In this document: positions 3,765 through 21,179 of the stretch, piece after piece
How positions within the stretch are numbered: the stretch's first letter is position 1
Layout of the letters: every line of letters starts with the position of its first letter
DNA from: Candidatus Bathyarchaeum sp.
GTDB lineage: Archaea; Thermoproteota; Bathyarchaeia; Bathyarchaeales; Bathyarchaeaceae
Assembly (NCBI GenBank): GCA_026014495.1
Contig: JAOZIF010000137.1
Coordinates: forward strand, 5,611-69,610
Direction of reading: 5' to 3'
DNA: 64,000 bases
Made by a program: the position numbers and the translations under genes
Notes under the pieces: model-generated
What the model saw: only the letters and a program-made list of their open reading frames with translations
What the model was told of the DNA's origin: nothing
Database searches by the model: none

Positions 3765-4448
3765 CTACGGACGCTTTGCAAGATGCATTATCCATGATGG
3801 AGGCCATAGTGGCGTCTTGATTTTGTGGTAAACAGGCATTATTTCAATTACAGAAAAAAAAGGAGTTACTATTTGGAGAAACTTTTTTTTGGACAGCTTA
3901 AAGTTGGTGTAATAGTGACCAAAGGTTCGATTGTTTATTTTTTCTTTGATAGAATCAGGTAATAAAAATATAAGTGGGAATTTCGTGTGAACTTCAATGA
4001 AATATTCGGGGTTTGGTATCTGAACTATTAAAGAACCTTTTGTCTTAATTACTCTTTGGAATTCGTTTAGCGCTAATTCAGGAGTTCGAAGATGTTCAAG
4101 GACAGATATTGCAAGAATCGTGTCAACTGCGCTCTCTTTGATAGGCAGGTTTTGAGCATCACAAACCAGTCTATTTATGCCATCAATTTTTGGGATATAA
4201 CCCAGCATTTCCCTGCTAAAATCAATAGAAAGAGTTTGTGCACCATTTTTGGCGCATTCGACACTAAACTGTCCCACGTTACAGCCTACATCTAAAACTA
4301 TGGAATTCTTCTTTACGTGTTTGATGATGTATTGAGAGTACTTTAAATTTCTCTCATCTACGGCACCAGTTTTTTTTGCTATATTCTCTAAAGAATTAAA
4401 GACAATATTACCTAGTTTGAATGTATCACTTTTTGTGTTATCGCTCAT
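3765..4448 (-). CDS. Class I SAM-dependent methyltransferase
   Basis: Motif I 'VLDVGCNVGQFS', followed by an acidic loop 'SIDFS' and 'LAISVLEHL' (Methyltransf_11-like). Confidence 0.8.
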   Translation of the reverse strand: MSDNTKSDTFKLGNIVFNSLENIAKKTGAVDERNLKYSQYIIKHVKKNSIVLDVGCNVGQFSVECAKNGAQTLSIDFSREMLGYIPKIDGINRLVCDAQNLPIKESAVDTILAISVLEHLRTPELALNEFQRVIKTKGSLIVQIPNPEYFIEVHTKFPLIFLLPDSIKEKINNRTFGHYYTNFKLSKKKFLQIVTPFFSVIEIMPVYHKIKTPLWPPSWIMHLAKRP

Positions 4449-4548
4449 TATTGTTCACCGTATTTCTCAAAAAATCAACGCGGTATACTCGTTTCTTAGT
4501 TAACTTTGTTCTGATGGCAACAATGCTTCAAGGGTTTTGTTTTTAATT

Positions 4549-5475: not shown

Positions 5476-5897
5476 CAGCTTGGTGGTTTAAAGAATTTAA
5501 TTGGCTTTGCAGGAACACCAACTGCAAGACAGTTATCGGGTATATCCTTGTTTACCACTGCACCAGCACCAATAACTGCATTTTCACCTATAGTAACGCC
5601 AGGAAGTATAGTGACATTTATTGAGATTCGTGCACCTTTCTTGATTACAACTGGACATATTCCACCCTCATCTGCTTTGTATCCTCTTAACACATTTGAG
5701 TGTGAAAGGATGTAATCAAACCCAGCAATTATAACATCATCACCAATTGTAATGTCCGAAAAGTGGACATCAAGAAAAACATGACTACCAAAAACATATG
5801 GATTACCAATTTTTATGCCTGCTTTCCTATACATAGCTATTCTTAATTTTTCTGAAGGAGAATACATTCCCAAAAAGCGCAGTAACGATTTAAACAT
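5472..5897 (-). CDS. Left-handed beta-helix (hexapeptide repeat) O-/N-acetyltransferase
   Basis: Imperfect hexapeptide repeats ('ITIGDDVIIAG', 'VTILPGVTIGENAVIGAGAVV'). There is a 4-nt stop/start overlap with the downstream GT2. Confidence 0.8.
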   Translation of the reverse strand: MFKSLLRFLGMYSPSEKLRIAMYRKAGIKIGNPYVFGSHVFLDVHFSDITIGDDVIIAGFDYILSHSNVLRGYKADEGGICPVVIKKGARISINVTILPGVTIGENAVIGAGAVVNKDIPDNCLAVGVPAKPIKFFKPPSC

Positions 5898-5980
5898 ACA
5901 AGTTCCTCACAGTTTATTATATGAATCTAAAAACAATATTTATTCTTACTTCCAAAAAGTCGACTAAAAAAGTTCATAAC

Positions 5981-6892
5981 TCAGTTTGATTTTTTATGCC
6001 CATAACCAGTTAAGTGACCCTTCAAGAAACCTGCCATCCAAGCAACCCTTTTGAAAGTGTAATGGAAGGGCAATAGAAAAGAAAACTTCTTGTGAGTTAT
6101 TTTAAAGCCACTCTTACAACGAATTAAACCAGCGACAAAACCAGCCATAGGTGTCATTTTCAAAAGCGATATTGAATGGGCGTCTTTATGAAAGACAAAG
6201 TGACCTCCGTAGCCATACCACATGTATTGTGTCCAAAGGGAAAGAAGTGAATTTCGTGTGAATTCGACAAAAACTTCATCTGTTGACTCCAGTTTCCAAC
6301 CAGTTTTGACTAATCGGGATACTAGTTCGGTATCTTCTGCTGCACCCTTTATGTTAACATCGAAACCTCCACTGTTTCTTACAGCATCAACTCTATGGAT
6401 GGCGCCTTCGGTTCCAGGTAAATAGCCATATGTTGACGATTCTTTTTCTCCGCAACTAGAGTCGACGACATAAACCAGATTTTCCAAGTCAGCAACAACG
6501 CCGTGACCCAGACATAAACCATATTTTCCTGCTGCAACGGCTACACGGGGGTTTTTTTCCATGAATTCAACTTGTCCTCTGGTGTATGTGTTGGATAGAA
6601 CCATGTCTCCGTCTACCCATATTATGTATTTACTTTGGGCTTTGTCAACAACAATCTGCCGTGCAGCGCCTAAACCAGTAATATTGCGGTATATTCGGTA
6701 AGTGATGTCTATATCGGAAAGGTAGTCTTTCACGATTGATAATGTCTGGTCGTTACTGAAGCCTTCAACGACAATTAGTTCAATTAAATGATGAGGAAAG
6801 TCTTGACTGATTATGCTTTGCATTGTCTTTGCAATGGTCTCGTCTACATTCTTTATGCATAGACCAAGTGTGACAATTGGTGAGTTTGTCAA
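5981..6892 (-). CDS. Family 2 glycosyltransferase (paralogue of 4549..5475)
   Basis: 'VTLGLCIKNVDETIAKTMQSIISQDF ... WVDGDM'. Same domain order and C-terminal amphipathic segment as 4549..5475. Confidence 0.8.
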   Translation of the reverse strand: MTNSPIVTLGLCIKNVDETIAKTMQSIISQDFPHHLIELIVVEGFSNDQTLSIVKDYLSDIDITYRIYRNITGLGAARQIVVDKAQSKYIIWVDGDMVLSNTYTRGQVEFMEKNPRVAVAAGKYGLCLGHGVVADLENLVYVVDSSCGEKESSTYGYLPGTEGAIHRVDAVRNSGGFDVNIKGAAEDTELVSRLVKTGWKLESTDEVFVEFTRNSLLSLWTQYMWYGYGGHFVFHKDAHSISLLKMTPMAGFVAGLIRCKSGFKITHKKFSFLLPFHYTFKRVAWMAGFLKGHLTGYGHKKSN

Positions 6893-6956
6893 AGTTTTCA
6901 GTCGTCTCCTACGAATAAAAAATCAGACGGTGAGTTATGTTAAGCGTCTCACTCAT

Positions 6957-8177
6957 TCAGATTAAACCCTTTTCTTTGAGCATGTCTTCAGTTATGAGTG
7001 ACCGAGCCTCTTGACTGGTTTTCCACAGTTTAAATCCACTACTTGTGACAAATGTTGTTAAAGCAGCCAATAGAATACAGTTGTTTTGTATTACTTCGAT
7101 TAACATTGTTCTAGTTTTTCTAATCAGCAATGCTGGACAAAGCATCACCAAAAACGCCGCCAACAATACAGGATATTGCATAAACACAAAAACGGAAATA
7201 ACACCTAGAACGACAAACAGAACAGGATTAAAAAGGTGCAAGAAAAGCTCGGGCACAGCTATTTTCTTAGGAAGCTTCAGTTTTCGGTTAACCAGTAACT
7301 TAAGAGACTTGATCCATAGACGCTGTAATTGGTTTGCACGTCTAATCTTCAAAGTTATCTTGCTTTTCCAGTCTGTTGGAAAAATAGTGTAGAAGCCCAC
7401 TTCAGGAATTAGTAGGCTTCTGCTGTTTCTTTGCACAACATCAAAGGCTGTGCCAGAATCGTCTGTTTCATGATTGAATTCCTGAAGGAATTTGCGTTTA
7501 TAGGCTGCGAATCCGCCTTGAAAAAAGATTGTTGAATGTACTTTTGATTCGCCAATTCGAATTGATTGGACAGTGTTATCAAAAAATTGTTCTCCTACGG
7601 TAACCCATGAGCTTTGAGAGTTAAACAATAGCTCTCTTGCAGTTATTGCACCCACAGTTGGGTCTGATAGGTATGGCAAAGCTTTTATCAATATATCTGA
7701 GTGCAAAAAGCAATCTGCATCGGATACTACTATAACATCACCTGTTGCATGTTTTAGGGCAAAATTTAGAGCTCTTGTTTTTCCTTCCCGTTCAGTTCTG
7801 CTTAATACTTTTATGTCCAAACAATCATTATTGCTTACAAATTCGTTTATTTCATCTATCGTTTTATCGGTTGAAGCGTCATTTACGAGTATGGTCTCAA
7901 ATTTCTTGCTAGGGTAATTAACTTTGCACAGGTTCTCCAACTTGAATCGAATGGTTTTTTCTTCATTACACACAGGCACTATGATACTTATAGACGGATC
8001 ATAGCTTTCAGTCAGCTTCAGATTCCAAGGTTTTGATGATTGACGTCTCATATACAGGTAATATATGCCTGAAAAACCTGAGAAAACGAAGAGTAGCAAA
8101 GCCCAAGCTACAAGCATCAAAATCATAAAAAAAATCACTCTTTTAGAACTCTTCTGAACAAAGAATAATCCATTCAA
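6957..8177 (-). CDS. Membrane-embedded family 2 glycosyltransferase (synthase-type, N- and C-terminal TM helices)
   Basis: N-terminal TM helices, 'ISIIVPVCNEE', 'LVNDASTD', 'VVSDADC', and C-terminal TM helices. The architecture resembles PgaC/cellulose/chitin-synthase-like GT2s. The Q-x-x-R-W motif is not cleanly visible. Confidence 0.7.
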   Translation of the reverse strand: MNGLFFVQKSSKRVIFFMILMLVAWALLLFVFSGFSGIYYLYMRRQSSKPWNLKLTESYDPSISIIVPVCNEEKTIRFKLENLCKVNYPSKKFETILVNDASTDKTIDEINEFVSNNDCLDIKVLSRTEREGKTRALNFALKHATGDVIVVSDADCFLHSDILIKALPYLSDPTVGAITARELLFNSQSSWVTVGEQFFDNTVQSIRIGESKVHSTIFFQGGFAAYKRKFLQEFNHETDDSGTAFDVVQRNSRSLLIPEVGFYTIFPTDWKSKITLKIRRANQLQRLWIKSLKLLVNRKLKLPKKIAVPELFLHLFNPVLFVVLGVISVFVFMQYPVLLAAFLVMLCPALLIRKTRTMLIEVIQNNCILLAALTTFVTSSGFKLWKTSQEARSLITEDMLKEKGLI

Positions 8178-8186
8178 AAAATGGAC

Positions 8187-9098
8187 TCAGATATTTTTGT
8201 TCAAGCGCTCATCGAACAGCTTGAATGTTTCACGTGCGTGGCTCTCTTTTGACACTCCTGCGACTACGCCTTTCAAATTGCTAAGATTTGCTAAGTAGGC
8301 TACAGCTTCAGGTGGTTTGAAGTAACCTGCTGCTAGCACACTTATAGCTAATACTATTGGGCTAGAAATATTAGACAAGGTGTTCTCAAATTCGGTCCTT
8401 GATGGGTTCATTTGGAAACCTGCCTTGTTGAAAGGTGTTGCAATCAAAGTTTGGTCCAGATTAATATTCCATTCATTGAATTTTCTTACGAAAAGTGGAA
8501 GATTGCGAGTGTTAAATCCTGGAGTTATGCCTTTTTTAGAAAGAAATGAGGTGAAAGATTTGAATAACCAATCAAAGTTTAAAGCTAAACCCATGTCTGT
8601 CAATACTTCATGGAGTAAAACTGATGACAGGTTTGCTTTTTTGCCAGCTGCCGCTTTTATTTTGTTAATTTCGTATGAAACATACGTTTTCAAGAGACTT
8701 TCAGGTTTCATCCTAAAAGCTCCGTTTAAGCCTCCAAAAATTGCCTGAACATCACCTGACAGTGCCATCTGTTTCACAACGTTCTTGGCTAAGCCAGGAG
8801 TTCCAGTCTGAGTTGCAATTCTAACGTATTCAAAGACGTAAGGGACTATTGCATGAAGCTCTAGTTTATCAATTTTCTCTCGTTCTCGTAAGGTTTTTAG
8901 AATTGTTAAGGTTAGGTCGCTCACAGAAAACATGAAACCTGTTGCACCGTTCTCAACAGCAGTTAGGATCAAGTCTGCCTTATCTGCTGCGGAAACATCG
9001 CCGTCGGCTCTACTTCGAGCCTGTTCTTGAGAGAGATGGCTGATTCCATGAAATGGATTGTCTCCTACTAGGAGCATGGTTCGCACTTTTTTATTCAT
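8187..9098 (-). CDS. Conserved-looking hypothetical protein (soluble, unknown fold)
   Basis: 303-aa ORF with ordinary composition. Its start overlaps the stop of the upstream oxidoreductase by 1 nt. I recognise no motif. Confidence 0.45.
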   Translation of the reverse strand: MNKKVRTMLLVGDNPFHGISHLSQEQARSRADGDVSAADKADLILTAVENGATGFMFSVSDLTLTILKTLREREKIDKLELHAIVPYVFEYVRIATQTGTPGLAKNVVKQMALSGDVQAIFGGLNGAFRMKPESLLKTYVSYEINKIKAAAGKKANLSSVLLHEVLTDMGLALNFDWLFKSFTSFLSKKGITPGFNTRNLPLFVRKFNEWNINLDQTLIATPFNKAGFQMNPSRTEFENTLSNISSPIVLAISVLAAGYFKPPEAVAYLANLSNLKGVVAGVSKESHARETFKLFDERLNKNI

Positions 9099-10108
9099 TA
9101 TTGTTCACTTCTTGTTTTTACTTGTTCAATTATGTAGTCAACTTTCGAGGATGTCTCAAAGTTTGGTTCACAATGCTTGTTTTCTAACAACGAATTAACG
9201 AAATGTTGGTTTTCTCTGAAGTATTCTGCATCACCTATCGAAAAATACACATTGTCATTAAGGTCATGTCTGTACCACTTCTGTTGGGTACCATCACTTG
9301 AGGTCAAGAGTAATCTGTCGTCGTTTACATCTATTGTTCCATCAGAGCATTTGATGAACAAACCAAATTCTGGCATTCGATAATTTGGCATTTGTTGGGA
9401 AACATTGATCTGTCCGGATAACCCTGCAGAATTAGTAACTGTGAAAGAAACTGATAGTTCAGAACCAGTTTCATTTCTTGTGCTGGACAAAACATTTTGA
9501 ACATCGAAATCGCCAAGTATCCAGAGTGATAAGTCTATTATGTGACAACCGATGTCTCTGAGCGCGCCACCACGTGATGCAGAAGACATTGACTCCTTTG
9601 TTAGTCCAAGAAAATCTGAAGAATATGCATAAGCCTTGAAAGATTTTATTTTGCCCAGATTTCCTTGTTGTAATAATTCTTTAGCTTTCCCAAAAACAAC
9701 AGAAAACCGTTTCATGTAACCAACCATGGTGATGCTGTCTGAGTTCTTGGCAAGTTCACACATTTCTTTAGCTTGCTCATAGTTGGTGGCAAGTGCCTTT
9801 TCCACGAACAAGTGACGAGCTATTTCTTTTTCATACAAAGTCTTTACTATTGATGAATGTGAAGAGATAGGAGTCGTCACGTAAGCTACGTCAAGGTCTA
9901 ACCCTGCGAGTTTATCAATGTCATTAACAACAAGAACTCCTGTTGGTGAAAAGATTTTTTTATAAAGCCTATTCAGCAATTTGCTTTTGTCACATAATGC
10001 TACTAGTTCGACGTTAGAGAAAACATTCAAAAGGCTTGAATGCAACAGGCCCATTTTTCCTAACCCGATAACAGCAACTCTAAGTTTTTGTTTTTTCAAA
10101 GTATACAC
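9098..10108 (-). CDS. Gfo/Idh/MocA-family NAD(P)-dependent sugar oxidoreductase
   Basis: N-terminal Rossmann 'LRVAVIGLGKMGLLH', an 'EKAL' motif, and a C-terminal alpha/beta dimerisation domain. Confidence 0.8.
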   Translation of the reverse strand: MYTLKKQKLRVAVIGLGKMGLLHSSLLNVFSNVELVALCDKSKLLNRLYKKIFSPTGVLVVNDIDKLAGLDLDVAYVTTPISSHSSIVKTLYEKEIARHLFVEKALATNYEQAKEMCELAKNSDSITMVGYMKRFSVVFGKAKELLQQGNLGKIKSFKAYAYSSDFLGLTKESMSSASRGGALRDIGCHIIDLSLWILGDFDVQNVLSSTRNETGSELSVSFTVTNSAGLSGQINVSQQMPNYRMPEFGLFIKCSDGTIDVNDDRLLLTSSDGTQQKWYRHDLNDNVYFSIGDAEYFRENQHFVNSLLENKHCEPNFETSSKVDYIIEQVKTRSEQ

Positions 10109-10227
10109 AACCTAATTTAAGTCTGTTTTTGACTAACCATTTGTTTTGAAATATCAAATCAAAACTGTTAAGCGAATAGCATCAGCTGTAAACATTAATA
10201 AATAAAGCAAAATAGAGGAGAACGTAA

Positions 10228-10974
10228 TTAAATGTTCATTGCGCCTCTGAAAAGAGTTTTCAAGATGCTAAATCCATCTCTAAAAGTGTTAAGATTAGAA
10301 ATACCATAACGTCTTGCGCGCTCAATACTTGGAATTTCATGAACAGTTAGTCCGAGCAATTTCGATTTTATACAAATCTCTGTTTCAATTTCGAAATTCT
10401 CACTCTCTAGAACAGGATTAAGACAGCGTAATGCGTCTTTTTTGAACGCCATATAGCCATAGCATAAATCGGAATAGTTAGTAAGAAACATGAAGTTTGA
10501 AATCCCTGTTAGAATCCTGTTGCCAACACGCCTTAATGGAGTTAAATCTTCAGAGCCACCGCAAGGCAAAAACCTCGAACCCTTTACAACATCTGCGCCC
10601 AGCTCTACAGCTTCAGCGAATCGAAATATCTCTTTTGGGTCCATTGACCCGTCAGCATCCAACATTACAGTAATGTCACTGGTACGCATACTTTCTTGGA
10701 AAGCTTCACGCAATGCACCACCTTTACCTGATCCGTTCTGAAGAATGACTTTGGCTCCGAGCGTCTTAGCAATTTCAACAGTCTTGTCTTTTGAATGCCC
10801 ATCTACAACTAAGATGTCGGCACAGCCTATTTGTTTTAAACTATTGATTATATCGTATATGTTTTTTTCTTCATTTAGCGTAGGAATAATGACTGTTACT
10901 CGATTATTCCCAAACTGTGAATCATTCATCCGCATACTCACCATCATTCTTCTGAACAAAACAGTTATTTTCAT
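10228..10974 (-). CDS. Family 2 glycosyltransferase, polyprenyl-phosphate sugar synthase (Dpm1-like) type
   Basis: 'VTVIIPTLNEEKNI', 'VVDGHSKDKT', 'MLDADGS'. The true start may be an internal Met (MRMNDSQ). Confidence 0.75.
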   Translation of the reverse strand: MKITVLFRRMMVSMRMNDSQFGNNRVTVIIPTLNEEKNIYDIINSLKQIGCADILVVDGHSKDKTVEIAKTLGAKVILQNGSGKGGALREAFQESMRTSDITVMLDADGSMDPKEIFRFAEAVELGADVVKGSRFLPCGGSEDLTPLRRVGNRILTGISNFMFLTNYSDLCYGYMAFKKDALRCLNPVLESENFEIETEICIKSKLLGLTVHEIPSIERARRYGISNLNTFRDGFSILKTLFRGAMNI

Positions 10975-11105: not shown

Positions 11106-11792
11106 TTAGCTTTTGTCAATGTAAAATCTTTCAGTATTCTTAAAGTATCTATCAACATTTTCCACAACAGGCTTTTTGGAATTGTTCAAAACCACTGACA
11201 ACTCACTAGTAAACTGCTTAACAGCTTTCTTTTTAAGAGAAAGATACTCCGAAATATCGACGTCAGCAATGCAATCTTTGTACACGTCAATCAATCGTTC
11301 AATGCGGGGTCCAAAATTCAAAAATCTATGCATCACAGAATATTGATACCTAATAGACGTTAACTTCAGATTTTGAAGGCATCTCCTAATAATTCGATTC
11401 GCAGCGCGATGGTCAGGATGAGAATCACGCATAAACGGAAAATAGACCTCAACTGGAGAGTGTTTTTTGAGTATTTCAGTTATTTTTTGTTCAGCAACAG
11501 TTTCATGTTCTTTAAGCATTCTATCTTCAAAATCGAGAAACACTAAGTTTTCAACAGGTACACCTAATACAGTTGTAGCATCAATTACTTCTTTCTTTCT
11601 GATTTTGACTATCGCATCGGGAGTTATATCCGAGTTTAGATCTAAACAGTTAGAAAATGCATGCCTCCCATCGGTTAATAAAACGATGTAGACTTGATAG
11701 TTTTCACTAAGTTTTTTAGCGATTGTTCCACCACAACCCAAAGTCTCGTCATCTGGATGCGGAGAAAACACTACTATTGGTTTATCCATCAA
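11106..11792 (-). CDS. LmbE/PIG-L family N-acetylglucosaminyl deacetylase
   Basis: Hallmark 'VVFSPHPDDETLGCGGTI' plus downstream 'HPDH' zinc-binding motif. Confidence 0.85.
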   Translation of the reverse strand: MMDKPIVVFSPHPDDETLGCGGTIAKKLSENYQVYIVLLTDGRHAFSNCLDLNSDITPDAIVKIRKKEVIDATTVLGVPVENLVFLDFEDRMLKEHETVAEQKITEILKKHSPVEVYFPFMRDSHPDHRAANRIIRRCLQNLKLTSIRYQYSVMHRFLNFGPRIERLIDVYKDCIADVDISEYLSLKKKAVKQFTSELSVVLNNSKKPVVENVDRYFKNTERFYIDKS

Positions 11793-11856: not shown

Positions 11857-12978
11857 TTAATTTGATAAAATGTCTTTTTTCAAAGAAAAACTAAGTTTCT
11901 TTGCCAAATTATCAACAGTGCTACTACAGGTAATCCAGTTGTAAAACTTACTATGCAAACTATTGCGCACTAACCTAACTTCAAAATTCTTTCTGTAGGT
12001 GTGCGTCCATCTTTTTTTGTACGCTTCAGCACCTCTCATAAGATCATATTCCTTAATTCCATTTTCTATACAGCGCTTCAAAATGAGCATTATTGTGAGA
12101 CTCCCAGCAGAATAAACAGAATACTCAGGAAGAAAACCCGAGAGATAATAATACGTCTTTTCAGCATAATCAAAGGAATAGTGACCTGCAATGGGTTCAT
12201 CGTTAGCCATTAAGAAATAAAGACTCAACCAGTTTTTATCATTAAAACGTTCAGCGACATCTACATGAAAATCACGAAAAGCTCCATCATGAAAAGCCCC
12301 TGACAATCCTTCCGAGTTCCATTTTTTTTGATGTATCTCCATGAAAACATTTATAGCTTCATTAACTGAGAGTCCAACCTCGTCAAACTTTTTAAAATCT
12401 ATTTTATGATTTTGCTTAATTCGTCGTAGTTTTTTGTTCAGGTCCTGTCGCATGTTGCAGCTCAACCCTTTCATAAAACTTTCAAACGAATCAGGCAAAG
12501 TAATATACGGACACACATTGTAAACTCTTTCTTGAACATCTAAATTGAACGGAACATTGGAAAAGAGGTTGCCAGAATAATTTTTGCTTTCAGGAATTTC
12601 CTTAAGCTCAATCCAATCCCAGTCTGCAACGACATTCACCAAATAATCCATTATAATATTTAGACACTTTTCTTTTTGTTCAGCAATAATAAAATTGTTA
12701 TAATCAGAATGGCGGGTTCCCACAAATTCTACTTTTTTAACTGAACCCAAACCAGGCATCTTATACTTCGATAACATTAGTGGAGCAATAGCACAAACCT
12801 TGTCTTCATCTTCAACAGTTAAAAGCAAAAGGCGCCTGTTAGACCCGAAATGCTTCCACCAAGTAGACAACCAGGCCCAAGTCAAGAAAACGTTGTTACC
12901 AAAAAGGTTGCTTTCAAGAACAGTGTCCCATGTTTCCTTAACACCATCAAAGTTATCCACTTCGTTTAGTTTCAACAT
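11857..12978 (-). CDS. Fem/CelD-type GNAT-fold protein (Acetyltransf_6 / BioF2-like family)
   Basis: 373 aa. N-terminal 'FLTWAWLSTWWKHFG' and C-terminal 'YYLSGF...YSAGSL....LKRCIENGIKEYDLMRGAEAYK' match the CelD/FemAB-related GNAT pattern. Confidence 0.65.
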   Translation of the reverse strand: MLKLNEVDNFDGVKETWDTVLESNLFGNNVFLTWAWLSTWWKHFGSNRRLLLLTVEDEDKVCAIAPLMLSKYKMPGLGSVKKVEFVGTRHSDYNNFIIAEQKEKCLNIIMDYLVNVVADWDWIELKEIPESKNYSGNLFSNVPFNLDVQERVYNVCPYITLPDSFESFMKGLSCNMRQDLNKKLRRIKQNHKIDFKKFDEVGLSVNEAINVFMEIHQKKWNSEGLSGAFHDGAFRDFHVDVAERFNDKNWLSLYFLMANDEPIAGHYSFDYAEKTYYYLSGFLPEYSVYSAGSLTIMLILKRCIENGIKEYDLMRGAEAYKKRWTHTYRKNFEVRLVRNSLHSKFYNWITCSSTVDNLAKKLSFSLKKDILSN

Positions 12979-13015: not shown

Positions 13016-13897
13016 TCATTTTTCTCTGAAAATACGCAGATAAGCAGAAGCAGCCATTGCACGGAGATCGTCTTTCAAAACTTTCTTAGGAAAAGCCTGT
13101 TTGAAGTAAGAAAAATCTCCAACAGGAGAAAAAGTTGAGTCCCAAACACCATCACGGGAAGCCACAGTAATTTGTTTCACTGAACGAGTTGAAATACCCA
13201 TAAGTTTTGAGGCAGCAATATCTGCTACAAGAGGGTTGTCACAAGACATCACCAAGTTCAATTGTTTAGCGTATTTTCCATGTGCAACTAGACCATCGAC
13301 TACAACCAAATCAGTTTTGATTTGCTTGTTTATGAAAACTATTGCTTCGTCCAATACTTTGTGATACTTGAACTTTTGTGGATAAGCGTTACATCCATAA
13401 AAATTCTTTAGTGCACACGTAATTTTCACACCGTGCATATACTTTAGTTTAGGAACGTTTACCACAAGATCGGCTTCATAAAATAGTTCAGGTATATGGA
13501 ACGTGAATAGTGAACGACCGATTCTAGCGTCGATGATACGGCATTTCTTTTCGGTTAAATTGACTAAGTTTACGTCTTTTTCTTTAGCCATCTTGTCATA
13601 TTCAAGCATCTTGAAGGCATGTTTGCATTTCATGGCGGAGGCGTCTGATTCTACGACGAAAATTTCAGAAGTTCGGGCAAAATTTTCTCTAAAAACGTCA
13701 ATCAGAGCAGCAACGAATAATGGATCAGTGACTTCTCCAGTTGAAGGGTGATAATAGTAACACATATTTGGTTTTATTACGATTTTATCAGCGTTCCTGT
13801 TAAAGTTGAATCCAATTAAATCTAGAGATTCTTTGATTGCAGCTTTCAATGTATCTGGATTACAGTTCTCAGTACGAACAAAACTTACAGTGCTCAA
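13016..13897 (-). CDS. DUF362 domain protein
   Basis: 'KIVIKPNMCYYYHPSTGEVTDP' and the overall ~290-aa layout resemble DUF362. Function unknown. Confidence 0.55.
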   Translation of the reverse strand: MSTVSFVRTENCNPDTLKAAIKESLDLIGFNFNRNADKIVIKPNMCYYYHPSTGEVTDPLFVAALIDVFRENFARTSEIFVVESDASAMKCKHAFKMLEYDKMAKEKDVNLVNLTEKKCRIIDARIGRSLFTFHIPELFYEADLVVNVPKLKYMHGVKITCALKNFYGCNAYPQKFKYHKVLDEAIVFINKQIKTDLVVVDGLVAHGKYAKQLNLVMSCDNPLVADIAASKLMGISTRSVKQITVASRDGVWDSTFSPVGDFSYFKQAFPKKVLKDDLRAMAASAYLRIFREK

Positions 13898-13912: not shown

Positions 13913-14914
13913 TTAGGTGTGCAGTCCTGAATTCTTCATCGCGTTTTTGTATGCAGAATCAATTACTTTCAAGCCATACAAGCCAGCATCTCCTGAAGGC
14001 TGAGGCTGCTCATCTTTCTGTAAACTGCTAACAAAATGTTCTAGTTCCAAGTAGTTAGAATCCTTTTTATTTAACCCAAATTTGCGTGCAATACCGTTCC
14101 AGAAGATTTTTGAAGTGCTCTGAGGAGAAATTTGAACCAGCATATTTTGGGCAGTCCCACAAACTTGAACCGATTGCAAAAAGTCTGTTGAGAACCATCC
14201 TACTTTAGCAGTTGCTACAGGACCGTCCTTAAACTTTAGCACACAAGTCGCAGCATCCTCCAACTCGAGGTTAAACATGTGTTCTAAAAAACATTCTACA
14301 TGAACGACTTCACCGAAATACCAGCTTAACAAGTCAATCAGATGTGAACCAAGGTCTAGTAAAACACCGCCTCCAGATAGTTCTTTGTCAAGCCACCATG
14401 ACGGAACTTTAACAGGACCAACATGGTCACTTCTTGGAGAGAATGGACCACCACTGACATTGGTGACCTCCGCCAATTTAATGCTGCCAAACAAACCATC
14501 TTTTATTCCATCATATAGGTTTGAAAGAATGGGGTTAAATCTCATATCATATCCCATCATCAGTTTAACACCGTTCTTTCTGACAGCTGACAGAATTTCC
14601 TTCCCTTCATCAACAGTTCTAGCTAGCGGTTTCTCCAGAAGAATGGCTTTTCCAGCTTCTGCCGCTTTCTCTGCACCATCACGATGAAGAAAGTTGGGCA
14701 AACTAACGACAACTGCGTCAACAGCGTCATTTTTCAAAAGGTCATCATAGTTAGCGTAAACGTCTTTGATACCCATTCCTTTTGCATACCTTCGGGCTTT
14801 TTGAGATAAATCTGCCACGGCCACGGTTTTTGCGCCCTCTAGCCGTAGAGAATTACGAAGACTTACTTTGCCTTGTTCTCCAAGCCCAATTAATCCTAAA
14901 TTTACCTGTTTCAT
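13913..14914 (-). CDS. Gfo/Idh/MocA-family NAD(P)-dependent sugar oxidoreductase
   Basis: 'VNLGLIGLGEQG' Rossmann motif, an 'EKPLA' motif, and a C-terminal oxidoreductase domain. Confidence 0.8.
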   Translation of the reverse strand: MKQVNLGLIGLGEQGKVSLRNSLRLEGAKTVAVADLSQKARRYAKGMGIKDVYANYDDLLKNDAVDAVVVSLPNFLHRDGAEKAAEAGKAILLEKPLARTVDEGKEILSAVRKNGVKLMMGYDMRFNPILSNLYDGIKDGLFGSIKLAEVTNVSGGPFSPRSDHVGPVKVPSWWLDKELSGGGVLLDLGSHLIDLLSWYFGEVVHVECFLEHMFNLELEDAATCVLKFKDGPVATAKVGWFSTDFLQSVQVCGTAQNMLVQISPQSTSKIFWNGIARKFGLNKKDSNYLELEHFVSSLQKDEQPQPSGDAGLYGLKVIDSAYKNAMKNSGLHT

Positions 14915-14939: not shown

Positions 14940-15980
14940 TTACAGAAATACTGCAAGGAATTTTTCGCATAATGATAACACAAATTTGTTAAATTTTGGC
15001 ATATAGACTTTGTTATAAAGATACACTTTGTTAAGTTGTCCTTTCCATTCTCTTTTCCATCTCCATAAACCCCAGCCTTCAGAGTTTTCATTGGGCAGCG
15101 GTTCACGGACGTGCCCCATATGATACCAAGAGAATCCATTGTTGCAAGCCCATTTCATTGTTTCCCAGTGTAGCAGATCGTTGGGTCTTACGTGCCAACT
15201 TTCTTCCCGAGAACCTGTACCTAATGCATAAGCAGTCTTGCCATGAAGTACGACAAAAACTCCAGCAACAGGTTGACCCTCAAAAACAGTTAAGAATATT
15301 TTTAGATTGTTACGTTTTCCAAAGATTTTGCTGAGAGATTGAAAATATATAAAAGGGTATGTTTTGAAGCCAACTCTTTTAGCTGAAATCGCGTGTAACT
15401 CAAAAAAGGAAGCGAGGGCATCATAGTTGTTACATTGAACTACTTTGGCACCTTGTTTTTGTGCTTTTTTGATGTTTCTTCTTTTGTTATGTGTAATTGT
15501 TTTCCAAAGTTCGGTTTCAGATTTCCGAAGGTCTACTTTGTAAACGTTGAATACTGTGTTAACTGTATAACCCATATTTTCTAAAGTCTGATTTGTTTCT
15601 GGCGCATAGATGTTAGCTTCAGAGACCCTGTTCTGGATTGCATGTTTTTCTAATAGCCCCATTAACTTTTCCAGAACTTCTTTCCTGTTGTCTGTCCCTA
15701 CAACTGGTCCGTAACCATAAACGCCGCCAACTTCTGTGCGGTCACCAAACCCGAACCGCTTGTTGTATCGAGCTTGAATTAAACCTGCAAGATTATCATC
15801 GTTTATTGCTAAAAACCTTAGAATTTTCGCGTGGGGATTAGATTCCTTTATGGCTTCGCCGTATTCAAATGACTGTTGAAGATTACCTAAAGTGTAGTCC
15901 TGCAAGAACTTTTCCCACATGCCAGATGTAGGGTGGTCGATAATTGTATATTTGTCCATAATACTAGTCTCTTGCAACAT
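14940..15980 (-). CDS. FemAB-family (aminoacyl-tRNA-dependent peptidyltransferase-like) protein
   Basis: 'LQQSFEYGEAIK' (FLQS..W-type N-terminus), 'HNKRRNIKKAQKQGAKV', 'GKTAYALGTGSRE....RPNDLLHWETMKWACNNGFSWYHMG', and 'GLWRWKREWKG' (cf. FK..FG of FemX/FemA). Confidence 0.7.
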   Translation of the reverse strand: MLQETSIMDKYTIIDHPTSGMWEKFLQDYTLGNLQQSFEYGEAIKESNPHAKILRFLAINDDNLAGLIQARYNKRFGFGDRTEVGGVYGYGPVVGTDNRKEVLEKLMGLLEKHAIQNRVSEANIYAPETNQTLENMGYTVNTVFNVYKVDLRKSETELWKTITHNKRRNIKKAQKQGAKVVQCNNYDALASFFELHAISAKRVGFKTYPFIYFQSLSKIFGKRNNLKIFLTVFEGQPVAGVFVVLHGKTAYALGTGSREESWHVRPNDLLHWETMKWACNNGFSWYHMGHVREPLPNENSEGWGLWRWKREWKGQLNKVYLYNKVYMPKFNKFVLSLCEKFLAVFL

Positions 15981-15999: not shown

Positions 16000-17238
16000 T
16001 CAAAAACTTACACCTGGACGACTCCAAGGATAGACTTTTTTCTTTATGATTTTTGCCAATGCGACTGGAAACAAAGCCGAATTGAACAAAAATGGAAGTG
16101 GATCATCTAATTCAAACAAATCATAAAAGAGTCCGGGTTCATAAAACTTGAGCCAGCTAGCTAATACTTTCAGGTTGTTCTGGTTTTTAAAGATGTGATT
16201 TGTAAAGCCGTTTTTAAGCATGCTAAAGAGGTATAGTAGGTCTTGATCAAAGTATCTGCCTTTAACGCCCACCTTATAGTTGAAGACTCCCTTAACGTCA
16301 CCGTCCATAGCAATTTGGTAAAGTAAATACGGAAAGTCCACTCCAGCTTTGACTGCAACAGATAGTGATCCCCAGAAACGAGGGTTAATCTCCAGTAGTT
16401 TTGGAATATTATCTCGGGAGTCAACTCTAAACTCAAGTTCTGCAATTCCGTGCCAATCTAACGCCTTAAGCAAAGTTTCACTGTATTTTCTTAGATTATT
16501 AGTAAGCGGAACAGTTTCGCGATAACAGCTGTTGCCACCTTCAGGAGGCCATGCTCGAGTTACTTTGATACAACAAAATGCTCGAGGTTTACCGTTGTTG
16601 TATACAGTCGCCACTGAAAAGTTCGTTCCCGGAACATATTCTTGAATTAAAGGATACGGAAAATATTGATGAATACTGTTATAAGTTGCGATAAGCTCTG
16701 CAGGTGAATTGACAAGACCCCCTCTTCTGTGATAAGCACGACCATTTCCCCAAACCATAGACCATCGCGGTTTGACGATACACGGATAGGTTATTTCTTG
16801 CGAGATTTTGTTCAGTTTAGCGGTTGAATTATCTACAAAAAATGTTTGTGGAATGGGTACGCTGTGTTCAGTGGCTAATTTCATTGTTGATCGTTTGTCA
16901 AAGCACTTGAGAATTGAATCATGACGGGCAATAGGAAGGTTCACATAAGGACTTATTCGATCTCTGTTTTTGGAGATTGGTAAAAGAGACCATTCAAAGA
17001 TGGGAAAAAGAAGATCAAACTTTGTTTTTTTAACGATTTTTTCTACTGCACAAGCATATTCTTTTTCAAAACTCGTAGATGGAACCAGCACTTGTCTTTT
17101 GCAATATTTTGAAAACCGAGAAACAGATAAAGAATAACTCGACATAATAGCTGTGTCTACTTTTCGTTTTCCTAGAGATCTTAAGATGGGAAGGACAACC
17201 GGATTATGTCCCTCGGCAATTAAAACACCATTACCCAA
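16000..17238 (-). CDS. ATP-grasp family carboxylate-amine ligase
   Basis: 'PCIVKPR', 'LIQEYVPG', and 'HGIAELEFRVDSRDNIPKLLEINPRFWGSL', typical of ATP-grasp_4-type ligases. Confidence 0.75.
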   Translation of the reverse strand: MGNGVLIAEGHNPVVLPILRSLGKRKVDTAIMSSYSLSVSRFSKYCKRQVLVPSTSFEKEYACAVEKIVKKTKFDLLFPIFEWSLLPISKNRDRISPYVNLPIARHDSILKCFDKRSTMKLATEHSVPIPQTFFVDNSTAKLNKISQEITYPCIVKPRWSMVWGNGRAYHRRGGLVNSPAELIATYNSIHQYFPYPLIQEYVPGTNFSVATVYNNGKPRAFCCIKVTRAWPPEGGNSCYRETVPLTNNLRKYSETLLKALDWHGIAELEFRVDSRDNIPKLLEINPRFWGSLSVAVKAGVDFPYLLYQIAMDGDVKGVFNYKVGVKGRYFDQDLLYLFSMLKNGFTNHIFKNQNNLKVLASWLKFYEPGLFYDLFELDDPLPFLFNSALFPVALAKIIKKKVYPWSRPGVSF

Positions 17239-17282: not shown

Positions 17283-18653
17283 TCAAATTGTTTTATCTTT
17301 ATAAAGGACATCTTCAGGAGTTTCTCGTTCTCGAATCAGTTTGACATTACCGTTTGAATCTAAATTAACTGCACCAGGACGGGGATGAAGAAATTGTGTG
17401 GATCGCGAAATTGTGTATGCACCGCAATCAGAAATTGAAAGTATGTCGCCTTCAGAAACTTTTGGAAGAAAAGTTTTGAGATTAATGAAATCTTCAACAT
17501 ATAGTAGAGGACCAACTACATTAATTTCCTCTTCTGGTTGTTTGGATGCTTTGTTTGCAACACTAATTTTTCGCTGCTCTATTGCACCAAAACGAGGAAG
17601 CAGATTTGTTCCAGCATCAACCATTACCCATTTGTAGCCGCCAGCATTTTTGACATGATCAATACGTGTAAGTAAGATTCCAGACGCTGAAGTGATAAAT
17701 CTCCCTGGTTCAACAATAATTGTTGGTTCAGGTAAATCTTCTAGACCTTGCTTGATTTCGTTTACAATAGACTTGGCAACAGATTCTATGTTTGTAATGT
17801 TACGGTTTTCAGCTAATTTTGATTTGAGACCGATTTTTCGTCTCAGAAAGTCTTTGATTAAATCATTGTTTCCAATAAAACGAGCCCCACCGGGATTGAA
17901 TCCACCGCCTATGTTGAGGTATTTAAGTTCAACTCCAAAGTTTCTGTAGAGTTCGCGCATCATAGGTAGAAGTACTTTTGTTGATACCCTATAGGGATGA
18001 GCCATTATTGCTTCAATTTTCAAGTTTTTGAGTTTTGTTGCCTGTTGAACGGCTGAATATGCTTCTTTTATAGAAAAACCGAATCTACTTCCAAGATTGC
18101 AATAAGCAGCGGTAACAAGCTTGTTTAAAGAGAGATACTTGAATATACCGGGTTCTTTGAAGGGATTTATTCTGAAACCGATAGCCTGTTTAACGCCCAA
18201 CTCTCCTGCTACAGCATTCACTCTGTTGAGTTCAGTAAGAGATTCGACATTTATGAGTCGGATTTGCTTGCTGATAGCTGTCTTTAGTGTTTCTTTGGAT
18301 TTCATGGGACCATCAAAGATTATGTTCTCGCCACCAAAGCCAGCCCGTAAAGCCACATGTATATCAAGTTCGGAAGCAACTTCGGCGTATGCTCCGTTCT
18401 CTTTAAGGGTTTGGCAAATAGCCAAATTGTTATTGGTTTTGATTGAATAACAAACCATTACTTTGGGATATAAAGCAGAAAATGCACTGGAGATACGATT
18501 AAAGTTCTCTATAAGCTTAACTTCGTCAAAGACAAAAAGTGGTGTATCATATTTTTCGCATAGTTCAACCAAGTTTACTCCGTGTAGAGTCAAATGACCC
18601 TTTTTGTCGATTCCAAAGCTATTTTCGTGAATCAAGTTTTTATTAATCTCCAA
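17283..18653 (-). CDS. PLP-dependent decarboxylase, Orn/DAP/Arg decarboxylase family 2 (LysA-like)
   Basis: PLP-lysine context 'CYSIKTNNN', then 'NIGGGF', 'EPGRFI' and 'SDCGAYT'. Confidence 0.8.
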   Translation of the reverse strand: MEINKNLIHENSFGIDKKGHLTLHGVNLVELCEKYDTPLFVFDEVKLIENFNRISSAFSALYPKVMVCYSIKTNNNLAICQTLKENGAYAEVASELDIHVALRAGFGGENIIFDGPMKSKETLKTAISKQIRLINVESLTELNRVNAVAGELGVKQAIGFRINPFKEPGIFKYLSLNKLVTAAYCNLGSRFGFSIKEAYSAVQQATKLKNLKIEAIMAHPYRVSTKVLLPMMRELYRNFGVELKYLNIGGGFNPGGARFIGNNDLIKDFLRRKIGLKSKLAENRNITNIESVAKSIVNEIKQGLEDLPEPTIIVEPGRFITSASGILLTRIDHVKNAGGYKWVMVDAGTNLLPRFGAIEQRKISVANKASKQPEEEINVVGPLLYVEDFINLKTFLPKVSEGDILSISDCGAYTISRSTQFLHPRPGAVNLDSNGNVKLIRERETPEDVLYKDKTI

Positions 18654-18695: not shown

Positions 18696-19832
18696 TTACA
18701 CAAGTATTTCAGGCATGGCTTTCAAAAATCGATCGTTCATATTGGGAAGGCCTATGGTAACGCGTAGACAGTGACCGATAACGGGTAATTCGCCAAGATT
18801 CTTTATTATTATGCCTTTATCTAAAAGTTCACGGTAAACTTCCTCGGTGTTTTTGTTAGTTTTAAATGTAACAAAGTTTGCTTTTGAATCCAAAACTTTT
18901 ATTCCGTTAATAACACGCAATTTACTAAGAAGTCTCTCACGCTCAGTGTTAACTAAATTTGTCCATCTTTGCACAACTTCAATGTTATCCAACAGCCTTT
19001 GGACGTACCTAGCAGTAAGTGTGCTAACAGTATAAGGAAGTGTCTCTGAAAGGACTGAAGCAAAATCCTTGTGCGCAGTAGCGTACCCAAATCGTAGTCC
19101 CGCCAAACCAAACGCTTTGGAAAATGTCCGCACTACAACTATATTCTTTTTATTAATAGCCAATGGACAAACAGAATACGTTCCAAACTCCACGTAAGCT
19201 TCATCCACTAAGACAACCGCAGAAGATGCATTAGCCAAAGCTTCAATTGCAGCCCAATCAAACTGATTTCCAGTAGGATTATTCGGTGAACAAACAAAGA
19301 TTAACTTGGTCTTATTCGTCACCTTCTTAAGAACATCATCAACATCAATAGACAAATCGTCTCTAAGGGGCACTGAAACCAGCTTAGCTCCACTTAACTC
19401 CACCCTCTTTTTATACATGAAGAAACTGGGCGAAATTGAGATGGCTTCATCACCTTTTTCCAAGAAAAGCTGGATAATAAAATCAATTAGTTGTTCGCTA
19501 CCACTGCACGCCACAACACATTCAGAAGGCACACCTACATATTTTCCTAAGGCAGTTTTAAGCTCAACCATTGCGTTTGAATCATAAAATCTCAAATCAA
19601 CATTTTTAATAACCTCTAGAAAAACGCCTTTAAGAAAACTAGAGTCAACAAAGAAGTTTTCGTTAGCATCTAACTTTAGAATCTGAGAAGAACAAATGCC
19701 AAGCTTTGAGGCAAGCTGGGTAACACCAGTAGAAGAATTAACATAACCGAGAAGTGATCCATCAAAGGATTGCAAAAGTTCAAGCTTTTTTTCTAACCAA
19801 TTCAAATTCGGTTTCACTTCCATAATTTTCAA
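18696..19832 (-). CDS. Class I/II PLP aminotransferase, HisC/CobD-like
   Basis: 'LDANENFF', 'SPNNPTGN', and 'RTFSKAFGLAGLRFGY' (PLP lysine). Confidence 0.8.
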   Translation of the reverse strand: MKIMEVKPNLNWLEKKLELLQSFDGSLLGYVNSSTGVTQLASKLGICSSQILKLDANENFFVDSSFLKGVFLEVIKNVDLRFYDSNAMVELKTALGKYVGVPSECVVACSGSEQLIDFIIQLFLEKGDEAISISPSFFMYKKRVELSGAKLVSVPLRDDLSIDVDDVLKKVTNKTKLIFVCSPNNPTGNQFDWAAIEALANASSAVVLVDEAYVEFGTYSVCPLAINKKNIVVVRTFSKAFGLAGLRFGYATAHKDFASVLSETLPYTVSTLTARYVQRLLDNIEVVQRWTNLVNTERERLLSKLRVINGIKVLDSKANFVTFKTNKNTEEVYRELLDKGIIIKNLGELPVIGHCLRVTIGLPNMNDRFLKAMPEILV

Positions 19833-19856: not shown

Positions 19857-19930
19857 TGGAGCCAGGGGTTGGAGTTTCACCAACGTGAGCGGCTCTGCAA
19901 ACCGCCGCCTGATTACTCAGCCACCCTGGC
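19857..19930 (-). tRNA. Atypical tRNA with anticodon GCA (Cys-type), encoded CCA, non-consensus D- and T-loops
   Basis: Hand-folded minus-strand sequence: GCCAGGG-TG-GCTG-AGTAATC-AGGC-G-GCGGT-TTGCAGA-GCCGC-TCAC-GTTGG-TGAAACT-CCAAC-CCCTGGC-T-CCA. It has a perfect 7-bp acceptor stem, 5-bp anticodon and T stems, and U33, G37 and U73. The D-loop lacks GG, and the T-loop reads TGAAACT instead of TTCRANY. The gene is a GC-rich island in AT-rich DNA. Confidence 0.7.
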
Positions 19931-19972: not shown

Positions 19973-20584
19973 TCAGATAACAGCAGATCCAATGGTCATA
20001 TTGAGCTTTAGGTCTACGTATCTTTCGTGATATTGAAAGTTACCAAGTTCGTTATTGTAAATCCAAAGTTCGAAGAATACATTTCCGATAAATCCGTTTA
20101 TTTGCGAGTTCCATGTTGTAGACCCAGTAATATCTAACAGGACACCATTTAACGTCATACTGTTAAAGGTGACTTGTGAAAGATTTTCATTATAGCTGTA
20201 GTCAAACGAAAAAACAATGGGTAACTCCCATGTTTCGTTGTTAACAAGAGAAAATGTGATATCATACAAAGAGGGCAAACTGCTTGAGCTCTCAGTTAAA
20301 CTGTCAGCAGCCGATTGAGTTATATTACGGAATTTGACTTTAATCATGTAATCGCTATCAGTCCCTAATAAATTTCCAACACCTAAAAACACGTTATAGT
20401 CCTCGTTAAGTGTAATATTAAACGGATAGGTTTCACCATTATGTTCTGGACCCAGAAGCCAAAGTTCAGTGAAGAACTCTGTTTGGGGAAGAACTAAAAA
20501 CCGTTGTAACACAGGCGAAAGAACAAATAGTGACAAAACGAATATAACAACTAAAATAACTGTTGTGTAATTTTTATAACGCAT
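19973..20584 (-). CDS. Membrane-anchored extracellular protein, DUF1616-like
   Basis: N-terminal TM helix, then 'FTELWLLGPEHNGETYPFNIT', reminiscent of archaeal DUF1616 proteins. Contains several N-x-S/T sequons. Confidence 0.4.
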   Translation of the reverse strand: MRYKNYTTVILVVIFVLSLFVLSPVLQRFLVLPQTEFFTELWLLGPEHNGETYPFNITLNEDYNVFLGVGNLLGTDSDYMIKVKFRNITQSAADSLTESSSSLPSLYDITFSLVNNETWELPIVFSFDYSYNENLSQVTFNSMTLNGVLLDITGSTTWNSQINGFIGNVFFELWIYNNELGNFQYHERYVDLKLNMTIGSAVI

Positions 20585-20792: not shown

Positions 20793-21179
20793 TTATGCTG
20801 TTTCTTTTGAGTGTTTGTGGTTAGAGTTATTTGACAAATCTATGTTAGGACACATCGCATCTAACATCAGCCTTTGGTCTTCAACATGGTTCAACTGATT
20901 GTACACACTCTCACGCGATTTGTCATATTCACTAAATGTAGCCAAAAACATTTGTCCTTTTTTCGTGAGCATATAACGATTTCTCTTTCCACAAACGATC
21001 AACTCCGCTTCTGTCAAATCATTTAGGTACTGAACCAAGAGCTTATAGCTCAAATACGCTTGATACATTATTTGAGTTCTCTTAGCACCCTTGTTAGCAC
21101 TAATTACAGAAAGAATGTTTGCTAATATTACTAGTCGACTTCTGTGTTTACCCATTTTATTCACACAAAAAACAAACAA
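20793..21179 (-). CDS. Winged-helix transcriptional regulator (COG3432/HTH_45-like)
   Basis: 'RSRLVILANILSVISANKGAKRTQIMYQAYLSYKLLVQYLNDLTEAELI', typical of small archaeal wHTH regulators. The likely start is the internal Met (MGKHRSR). Confidence 0.6.
   Translation of the reverse strand: MFVFCVNKMGKHRSRLVILANILSVISANKGAKRTQIMYQAYLSYKLLVQYLNDLTEAELIVCGKRNRYMLTKKGQMFLATFSEYDKSRESVYNQLNHVEDQRLMLDAMCPNIDLSNNSNHKHSKETA

Follow-up and report, generated by a model that had tools for sequence, protein, structure and literature searches.

Here we describe a tRNA-Cys(GCA) gene on the minus strand of a Candidatus Bathyarchaeum contig (JAOZIF010000137.1; assembly GCA_026014495.1), at positions 19857-19930 of a 64,000-nucleotide (nt) stretch that we analysed in full and call the window. 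The gene belongs to a conserved family whose elbow is relaxed. It is physically linked to a gene cluster, and a neighbouring gene of that cluster encodes a protein with the double-GNAT fold of Fem-type aminoacyl-tRNA-dependent transferases. The window gene is real and conserved. We lean towards the view that it is an extra tRNA-Cys, specialised as a dedicated donor of cysteine (or phosphoserine) for the Fem-type transferases of the operon. More tentatively, and with less confidence, we suggest that Bathyarchaeia run a tRNA-dependent, Fem-type aminoacylation of an envelope glycan or of a glucosamine-based, thiol-like conjugate, drawing on an operon-encoded, non-translational tRNA-Cys.

A tRNA-Cys gene whose elbow is relaxed

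The first-pass annotation, made from the letters alone, had recognized a tRNA-Cys at this position without giving a strand. ARAGORN and Rfam bear out all the features that it listed and place the gene on the minus strand. Scoring against a covariance model, which that annotation had put forward as a check, returned 43.6 bits with Rfam RF00005 (gathering score 29, E = 5.7e-6) over the full model (1-71), and our family covariance model R1 gives 89 bits. Segment by segment, the RNA reads GCCAGGG UG GCUG AGUAAUC AGGC G GCGGU UUGCAGA GCCGC UCAC GUUGG UGAAACU CCAAC CCCUGGC U CCA. Direct reading yields a 7/4/5/5 cloverleaf with a 4-nt variable loop that holds U8, A14, G15, U33, GCA, G37, U54, A58, the G53-C61 pair, U73 and an encoded CCA. 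The nucleotides that identify a tRNA-Cys to CysRS or SepRS are U73, G34-C35-A36 and G37, and this set is complete. The stems comprise 20 Watson-Crick or G-U pairs; as had been claimed, the lone odd pair is G13.A22, a mismatch common to every related archaeal tRNA-Cys that we examined. Absent are the canonical elbow nucleotides G18, G19, U(Psi)55 and C56: the sequence confirms a D-loop without GG and a T-loop with G55 and A56.

That the odd elbow is not a genome-wide trait, as the first reading also held, is supported by the other tRNA of the window (39056-39162, minus strand), since this gene is canonical, with a GGUUCAAAUCC T-loop and a GG-containing D-loop. It carries an intron: ARAGORN run with -i identifies a tRNA-Arg(CCG) with a 28-nt intron, which default ARAGORN and Rfam at its gathering score miss. 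The D-arm of the window tRNA-Cys (19909-19920, minus strand) has a minimum free energy fold in a shifted register, CUGA-GUAA-UCAG, with four Watson-Crick pairs and a GNRA tetraloop. We rejected this alternative D-arm as a family trait; it is possible in the window sequence only, and other members cannot form it.

Relatives were collected in several ways. Contigs encoding homologues of HisC, the product of the first gene downstream of the window tRNA, at 57-69% identity were fetched with no reference to a tRNA, and all of these loci (given here by L number) carry a tRNA-Cys-like gene in the same slot, between a DUF1616 gene and the cluster. Their T-loops read UGAAAGU (L004), UGAAAAU (L001-L003, with anticodon GUA) or, combined with a GG-less D-loop, UUCAAAU or UUCAAGU (L005 and L006). 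We also scanned 185,579 species genomes with a pattern open at the anticodon and at positions 55 and 56 of the T-loop, and metagenomes with a pattern that forced G55 and left the anticodon free. A scan of viral sequences gave 3 chance matches, none of them a tRNA. The pattern scans yield two classes with a common 5' part, GUGGCUGAG. Class A, the canonical form, has G18G19, a UUCRAAU T-loop and a 5-nt variable loop, and is found in Bathyarchaeia, Methanomethylicia and metagenome-assembled genomes (MAGs) labelled Nitrososphaerota or Thermoproteota. In contrast, class B, which includes the window gene, has no GG, a T-loop beginning UGN with position 56 free, and a 4-nt variable loop. Apart from the intermediates L005 and L006, every cluster-linked gene retrieved by a search that did not impose G55 nevertheless has it. 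The two classes share the acceptor stem (GCCGGGG/CCCCGGC), U8-G9, the GCUG D-stem with G13.A22, A14, G15, the CUGCAGA anticodon loop and U73; judged by sequence, class B genes clearly derive from a canonical archaeal tRNA-Cys gene.

About 34 distinct class B sequences are known from genomes and metagenomes. They have in common a covarying cloverleaf with U73, G37 and CCA, and GCA is present in every one except a single sequence. The identity set is kept throughout the family save for the GUA of L001-L003, and GCA, G37 and U73 are retained although the patterns left the anticodon open. When the 34 distinct sequences are aligned, pairing holds in 94% of stem cells, and both sides have changed in 9 of 21 pairs; none of 500 shuffles reached this level, and slid controls were 25-54% paired. 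Of 37 class B genes, 34 encode the CCA, versus 21 of 36 canonical ones (p = 0.001). This pairing, the double changes and the retention of GCA, G37, U73 and CCA support the first-pass view that the gene is functional rather than randomly decaying. Its caveat that the odd loops might be an assembly error can be set aside, because related G55/no-GG genes recur in dozens of independent assemblies.

It is also very improbable that the window copy is a decaying duplicate or pseudogene. Decayed members do exist, among them a second copy in L004 (L004b, 31 bits, broken acceptor stem), copies in L136, L150 and L051, and fragments in L103 and L116, and the window copy has the lowest Rfam score of the intact members, at 43.6 bits. 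Against this, it combines its 20 good pairs and the family-wide G13.A22 with an intact anticodon loop and CCA, and displays neither broken stems, nor lost identity nucleotides, nor a want of conservation. Compensatory changes across the family, together with retention of the tRNA down to 38% Fem protein identity, demonstrate long-term purifying selection.

What the family has released is the elbow. Beyond A14-G15, the class B D-loop is hypervariable, with 13 variants that differ in nearly every lineage. No position of the molecule varies more than position 56 (1.33 bits), which is invariant in 25 canonical relatives. A single D-loop, AGGAUUU, accompanies A56 in five distinct sequences, C56 in five, G56 in one and U56 in one. 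Because position 56 takes all four bases beside the same D-loop, and because the D-loop is hypervariable, the class B elbow is relaxed rather than rebuilt, and the constraint on the G19:C56 contact is released. The first-pass annotation had read the simultaneous change of both elbow partners as a compensated alternative, and this part of it did not hold up. A re-engineered closed elbow would, for example, replace G18-Psi55 and G19:C56 by A18-G55 and U19:A56. Such contacts can be drawn for the window tRNA, where A-U stands at the G18-G19 site and G55-A56 in the T-loop, and among the first 12 sequences the C56 members had a distal D-loop G and the A56 members a U. At 34 sequences, however, the correlation was gone, AGGAUUU occurring with every base at the most variable position of the molecule, and L051 combines a G-containing D-loop with A56. 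We give this closed elbow only the slimmest of chances.

Linkage to a gene cluster with a Fem-type transferase

The decisive context, absent from the first-pass annotation, is the Fem-type transferase operon that begins immediately downstream: the first possible start codon of the HisC gene lies 24 nt past the tRNA's CCA, and all genes from 196 to 19832 are on the tRNA's strand (Table 1). This linkage is general. Among the G55/no-GG tRNA-Cys genes from the pattern scans, 35 of 40 lie within such a cluster, as against 1 of 38 canonical genes, that one through a weak generic GFO match (Fisher p ~1e-15). The linked loci encode an aminotransferase, a decarboxylase, an ATP-grasp ligase, a FemAB-like protein, an Acetyltransf_6 (AcT6) protein, a PIG-L deacetylase and glycosyltransferases. 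The five G55 genes outside the cluster are two on short contigs with flanks like those of cluster-linked kin, and those of L050, L070 and L105, the last in an unknown context.

Within the clusters, the tRNA gene changes place and number. It is always cluster-oriented and stands directly upstream of the gene for HisC, the decarboxylase, the ATP-grasp ligase, AcT6 or FemAB (L128 and L144); a copy directly precedes an AcT6-type gene in L056, L092, L030, L118 and L132. Five populations have two in-cluster copies (L004, L030/L151, L056, L092 and L110), and the second, degenerate copy of L004 precedes the decarboxylase gene. Between duplicate copies lie genes for GT4 and AcT6 and an open reading frame (ORF) of unknown function. 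An origin of the duplicates as integration (att) sites was considered and rejected, as no integrase or transposase separates the copies. The association extends to distant relatives: in L154, whose Fem protein is 38% identical, the cluster still holds a G55 tRNA-Cys.

These arrangements could also be read as those of a cis-acting module, in which a promoter and an RNase P/tRNase Z processing site punctuate the operon transcript and the released tRNA has no dedicated job. Only 25-100 nt separate the copies from the various cluster genes that follow them, too little for a separate promoter, and second copies head sub-operons. Truncated 5' halves (acceptor, D-arm and a mutated anticodon arm) persist in L103 (13694-13751) and L116 (8793-8861), exactly in front of a GFO/IDH/MocA gene and 2.7 kb upstream of an intact copy; between fragment and intact copy, L103 has the GFO gene, an unknown ORF and two small ORFs, one of them HicB-like. 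However, GCA, G37, U73 and the encoded CCA are conserved though needless for a processing signal, and no conserved promoter motif is evident upstream of the tRNA. A purely cis-acting module is in our judgement quite improbable; a cis-acting role can coexist with a donor role.

One enzyme for which the tRNA would be a donor is the FemAB-like protein. Its gene (14940-15980) lies 3.9 kb downstream of the tRNA on the same strand, and the product scores 80.1 bits against Pfam FemAB (gathering score 24). Sequence matches in the PDB include Staphylococcus aureus FmhB (6SNR, 3.5e-11) and Weissella viridescens FemX (5e-8). An AlphaFold2 model built with 23 homologues has a predicted local distance difference test score (pLDDT) of 92.4 and shows the double-GNAT Fem fold. 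The top 11 Foldseek matches of this model in the PDB are all aminoacyl-tRNA-dependent transferases, with template modelling (TM) scores of 0.68-0.80: 0.80 for FmhB (6SNR), 0.75-0.78 for FemX, 0.73 for FemA and 0.68 for Sbb17 and Sba18. The Sbb17 and Sba18 structures among these best matches were solved in complex with streptothrisamine, and tRNA-dependent aminoacyl-phosphatidylglycerol synthases (A-PGS, L-PGS, MprF) appear from rank 13. The motif R307-W308-K309 is invariant in the FemAB-like family (K309 in 24 members), and its W-K (K309) aligns with F-K-K of FmhB. In FemX, Lys305 has been singled out as the one residue of the active site that is reactive (PMC12945691); direct alignment to W. 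viridescens FemX ends before this residue.

A second candidate is AcT6, which matches the Fem profile in hhalign with 41% probability (E = 2.8e-4). It has no sequence match in the PDB, and a single-sequence AlphaFold2 model (pLDDT 34) was unusable. We regard AcT6 as a putative, more distant member of the Fem clan, its relation to the Fem fold being weak.

The cluster as a whole is listed in Table 1. The HisC protein scores 298.8 bits against NCBIfam hisC (cut-off 276.55); its identical counterpart MCW4016292.1 comes from a Candidatus Bathyarchaeota MAG that nr lists as Candidatus Bathyarchaeum sp. The distal part of the cluster (196-10974) encodes five GT2 glycosyltransferases, a second GFO oxidoreductase, a methyltransferase, a 303-amino-acid (aa) protein without a family match and a DUF2206 membrane protein. 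Upstream of the tRNA, the DUF1616 and HTH_45 genes recur in L001-L006, L051, L056, L086, L092, L110, L117, L118, L132 and others.

Table 1 Features of the window tRNA-Cys gene and its surroundings (window positions)
Feature	Position	Strand	Basis
tRNA-Cys(GCA) gene, 74 nt with encoded CCA, class B paralogue	19857..19930	-	ARAGORN, Rfam, covariance model
D-loop AGUAAUC; A14 and G15 kept, G18 and G19 absent	19911..19917	-	sequence
Anticodon GCA, between U33 and G37	19896..19898	-	ARAGORN, Rfam alignment
T-loop UGAAACU; U54 and A58 kept, G55 for U/Psi55, A56 for C56	19873..19879	-	sequence
3' CCA, genomically encoded	19857..19859	-	sequence
HisC-family pyridoxal phosphate (PLP) aminotransferase, first operon gene	18696..19832	-	Pfam Aminotran_1_2 1e-53; MCW4016292.1 100% identical
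PLP-dependent Orn/DAP/Arg-type (ornithine/diaminopimelate/arginine) decarboxylase, LysA-like	17283..18653	-	Pfam; NCBIfam lysA 263.9 bits (below 297.9 cut-off), TIGR03099
ATP-grasp ligase	16000..17238	-	Pfam ATPgrasp_Ter, ATP-grasp_3
FemAB-family protein, presumed aminoacyl-tRNA-dependent transferase	14940..15980	-	Pfam FemAB 1.9e-22
GFO/IDH/MocA oxidoreductase, UDP-N-acetylglucosamine (UDP-GlcNAc) 3-dehydrogenase-like	13913..14914	-	Pfam; NCBIfam NF040723 3e-42, below cut-off
DUF362 protein	13016..13897	-	Pfam 2.1e-32
Acetyltransf_6 (AcT6) protein, putative more distant Fem-clan GNAT	11857..12978	-	Pfam PF13480 3.1e-31
PIG-L family de-N-acetylase; best named relatives BshB1, BshB2	11106..11792	-	Pfam 1.4e-28; NCBIfam thiol_BshB1 9e-22, below cut-off
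Rest of co-oriented glycan cluster	196..10974	-	ORF map, Pfam
DUF1616 membrane protein, upstream neighbour	19973..20584	-	Pfam
HTH_45 winged-helix regulator, upstream neighbour	20793..21179	-	Pfam

Dedicated donor or translational tRNA-Cys

The dedicated donor is proposed because it has a precedent, the non-proteogenic tRNAGly of staphylococci, in which TGC or TGT replaces TTC in the T-loop; these tRNAs are weak binders of EF-Tu and the ribosome, and FmhB, FemA and FemB favour them (PMC7826273). On this model, class B would keep what a synthetase and a 3'-end-binding enzyme need (cloverleaf, U73, GCA, G37, acceptor and T stems, CCA) and would be freed from the elbow constraints of translation (G18, G19, Psi55, C56). 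Probably co-transcribed with the operon that it heads, the tRNA would be charged with cysteine by CysRS, or with phosphoserine by SepRS (with or without SepCysS), the phosphoserine then possibly being converted to cysteine. We surmise that the charged tRNA serves as aminoacyl donor for the operon's Fem-type transferases, which may acylate an amino-sugar (hexosamine) amine of a surface glycan or small glycoconjugate once the PIG-L deacetylase has bared it. If staphylococcal tRNAGly is a guide, the degenerate elbow would keep the tRNA from EF1A and the ribosome and so reserve it for this pathway.

The likeness to staphylococcal tRNAGly (NP1-NP3; Ia/Ib) is close. Both are paralogues, extra ones in staphylococci and presumably so in class B, that keep their synthetase identity and carry U54-G55 (TGC/TGT there, TGN here), and both occur in organisms with Fem-family aminoacyl-tRNA transferases. 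The staphylococcal tRNAs are likewise without the D-loop GG, and their genes are located in tRNA/rRNA clusters. In contrast, class B is archaeal rather than from Firmicutes, concerns cysteine (or phosphoserine) rather than glycine, and is embedded and duplicated within a Fem operon; its acceptor, as far as sequence tells, is presumably a glycan amino sugar rather than a lipid II peptide. Non-proteogenic tRNAs have so far been detected only in S. aureus and S. epidermidis (PMC7826273), and the literature that we searched holds no description of the class B tRNA or of any archaeal Fem-linked tRNA. Relative to known Fem-dedicated, degenerate-elbow tRNAs, we file the domain of life, the amino acid and the operon-embedded gene organization as new. 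If the proposal is true, this tRNA would for the first time take the non-proteogenic kind beyond staphylococci, into Archaea and to cysteine or phosphoserine, and the U54-G55 change would be a convergent way to withdraw a tRNA from translation.

Alternatively, class B could be the ordinary, possibly sole, translational tRNA-Cys of its lineage, with elbow drift tolerated and the linkage reflecting inherited synteny or a shared tRNA promoter. Several observations favour this alternative and weigh against a dedicated donor. Selection acts on the identity elements and stems, all of which are intact. Class B genes score 54-59 bits in Rfam, canonical ones 53-61 bits, so that nothing else marks class B as aberrant; we had tried the Rfam score as a discriminator between the classes and rejected it, as the ranges overlap. 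L005 and L006 are intermediates with a canonical UUCAAAU or UUCAAGU T-loop in the same position. Because L050, L070 and L105 lie outside the cluster, G55 is not exclusive to Fem contexts, and translation in this class might tolerate it: in L050 (3600-3671) and L070 (5564-5637) the G55/no-GG tRNA-Cys adjoins tRNA-Thr-ED-like genes, accompanied in L050 by SepCysS and in L070 by Trm5, and in L105 (544-617) it is likewise not in a Fem cluster. SepCysS and tRNA-Thr-ED are the usual neighbours of the housekeeping gene. It may be that in Bathyarchaeia operon-embedded tRNA-Cys genes of more than a single kind bear the degenerate elbow. Conversely, no tRNA lies close to the more distant Fem clusters of L152, L153 and L155. 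HisC scores above the hisC equivalog cut-off, and a housekeeping role is conceivable, which could make this part of the operon less specific. We infer by homology that the Fem subfamily of the window depends on tRNA.

Our genome-wide pattern matched no second tRNA-Cys in class B genomes, a result with a built-in limit: the pattern demanded GTGGCTGAG and is blind both to intron-bearing genes and to GTGGCCGAA-type tRNA-Cys, as in L159 and L160. This absence is uninformative, since the canonical tRNA-Cys of a SepRS operon reads GTGGCCGAA; in a Bathyarchaeaceae MAG (L159, 9694-12785), such a tRNA-Cys heads a full tRNACys-SepCysSn-SepCysS-SepRS operon and is undetectable by the pattern. What sustains the translational alternative is, in particular, the pair of G55 genes beside tRNA-Thr-ED-like genes (L050 and L070).

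Other evidence fits the dedicated donor better. The tRNA follows the cluster through rearrangements, and it duplicates and decays inside it. A freely variable position 56 is unexpected for a tRNA used by the ribosome, and the position is invariant in canonical relatives from several archaeal groups. In three independent assemblies (L001, 8007-8080; L002, 5140-5213; L003, 1920-1993), a GUA anticodon sits on a tRNA-Cys body with U73 and G1-C72 and is evidently viable; L121 (3182-3255) has an identical gene and flanks but anticodon GCA, the variant being C35U. Either a loss of function is tolerated here or the tRNA has changed identity. The persistence of this variant and the repeated decay of copies argue that the tRNA is dispensable for translation, and neither fits well with a tRNA-Cys that alone serves translation. 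Taking these points together, we consider the translational reading unlikely, though one to be taken seriously. Were class B nevertheless the only tRNA-Cys of its genome, a cytosolic elongator tRNA with a freely variable position 56 would still be notable.

The canonical genes show that placing a tRNA-Cys gene beside the enzyme that consumes its product is a local rule, because they adjoin SepCysS, an enzyme acting on a tRNA-bound substrate. One genome, JAWBNY01, demonstrably has two tRNA-Cys genes. Class A genes are often found beside SepCysS in Methanomethylicia and Bathyarchaeia (L007, L008, L010, L018, L025, L027, L031, L033, L035, L049, L065, L072, L081, L082, L084 and L099), in agreement with Mukai et al. 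2017, who reported tRNA-Cys adjoining SepCysS in tRNACys-SepCysSn-SepCysS-SepRS operons (PMC5424206). Each class is thus co-located with an enzyme that acts on the tRNA-bound residue, as predicted in the case of class B. The window tRNA is set apart from the SepCysS-linked genes in having no adjacent SepCysS, SepCysSn, SepRS or tRNA-Thr-ED gene, and in tblastn neither the 64-kb window nor any of the class B loci matched SepCysS or SepRS.

Related chemistries and further tRNA genes

Fem-type transferases are known to aminoacylate substrates other than peptidoglycan, as in Sbb17, Sba18 and Orf11 (streptothricin-type), VlmA, PacB and DhpH-C (PMC12945691). Sbb17/Sba18-type enzymes share the double-GNAT Fem fold with the window FemAB protein. 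Unlike the case proposed here, enzymes of the Sbb17, VlmA and PacB type are bacterial natural-product enzymes that use the housekeeping aminoacyl-tRNA pool, and in the literature searched we found no dedicated tRNA gene in their clusters (PMC12945691).

Loss of the elbow is compatible with function in other settings, and class B differs from these in kind. It keeps a standard 7/4/5/5 cloverleaf with only the elbow nucleotides freed. Both tRNAPyl and many mitochondrial tRNAs are functional without the canonical elbow nucleotides; unlike class B, they show further changes (a short D-loop or variable loop, a 6-bp anticodon stem or missing arms), and they serve translation.

In mycothiol (MshB/MshC) and bacillithiol (BshB/BshC) synthesis, cysteine is ligated to glucosamine. 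The window resembles these pathways in having a PIG-L/BshB-like deacetylase beside glycosyltransferases, together with a cysteine-specific component. This is no more than a likeness; the PIG-L match does not reach the BshB cut-offs. A polymer, rather than a small thiol, is suggested by the abundance of GT2 genes and by the DUF2206 membrane protein. A related Fem cluster that lacks a tRNA (L152, 3679-6906) encodes a pair of PIG-L deacetylases and a protein of 569 aa that marginally matches the BshC N-terminal domain (Pfam 26.7 bits against a gathering score of 27; TIGR03998, E = 2e-5). This BshC-like protein may hint that the addition of cysteine to glucosamine is the chemistry of these clusters.

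Should the donor role be true, it would mean that loosening the elbow to dedicate a tRNA paralogue is a recurrent solution in two domains of life, and that G55 with loss of G18G19 is a searchable signature for such tRNAs. It would also provide a natural experiment that separates the elbow contacts needed for translation from those needed for charging and 3'-end recognition, and a first handle on tRNA-dependent aminoacylation of archaeal surface glycans, in a sediment lineage that is very abundant. The outer sheath of a cultivated relative, Bathyarchaeum tardum, still lacks an explanation (PMC10477458).

Two further observations concern tRNA genes elsewhere in the collection. In a complete Bathyarchaeota chromosome, a canonical tRNA-Cys has a partial match to the tRNA model 175 nt away (L097, 4275-4330, plus strand; Rfam 29.7 bits, model 10-63). 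L102 (50-3162) and L119 (6948-10437) each contain a dense array with over 20 tRNA genes, non-archaeal in type, and several of these genes, including tRNA-Cys, have UGC for UUC in the T-loop.

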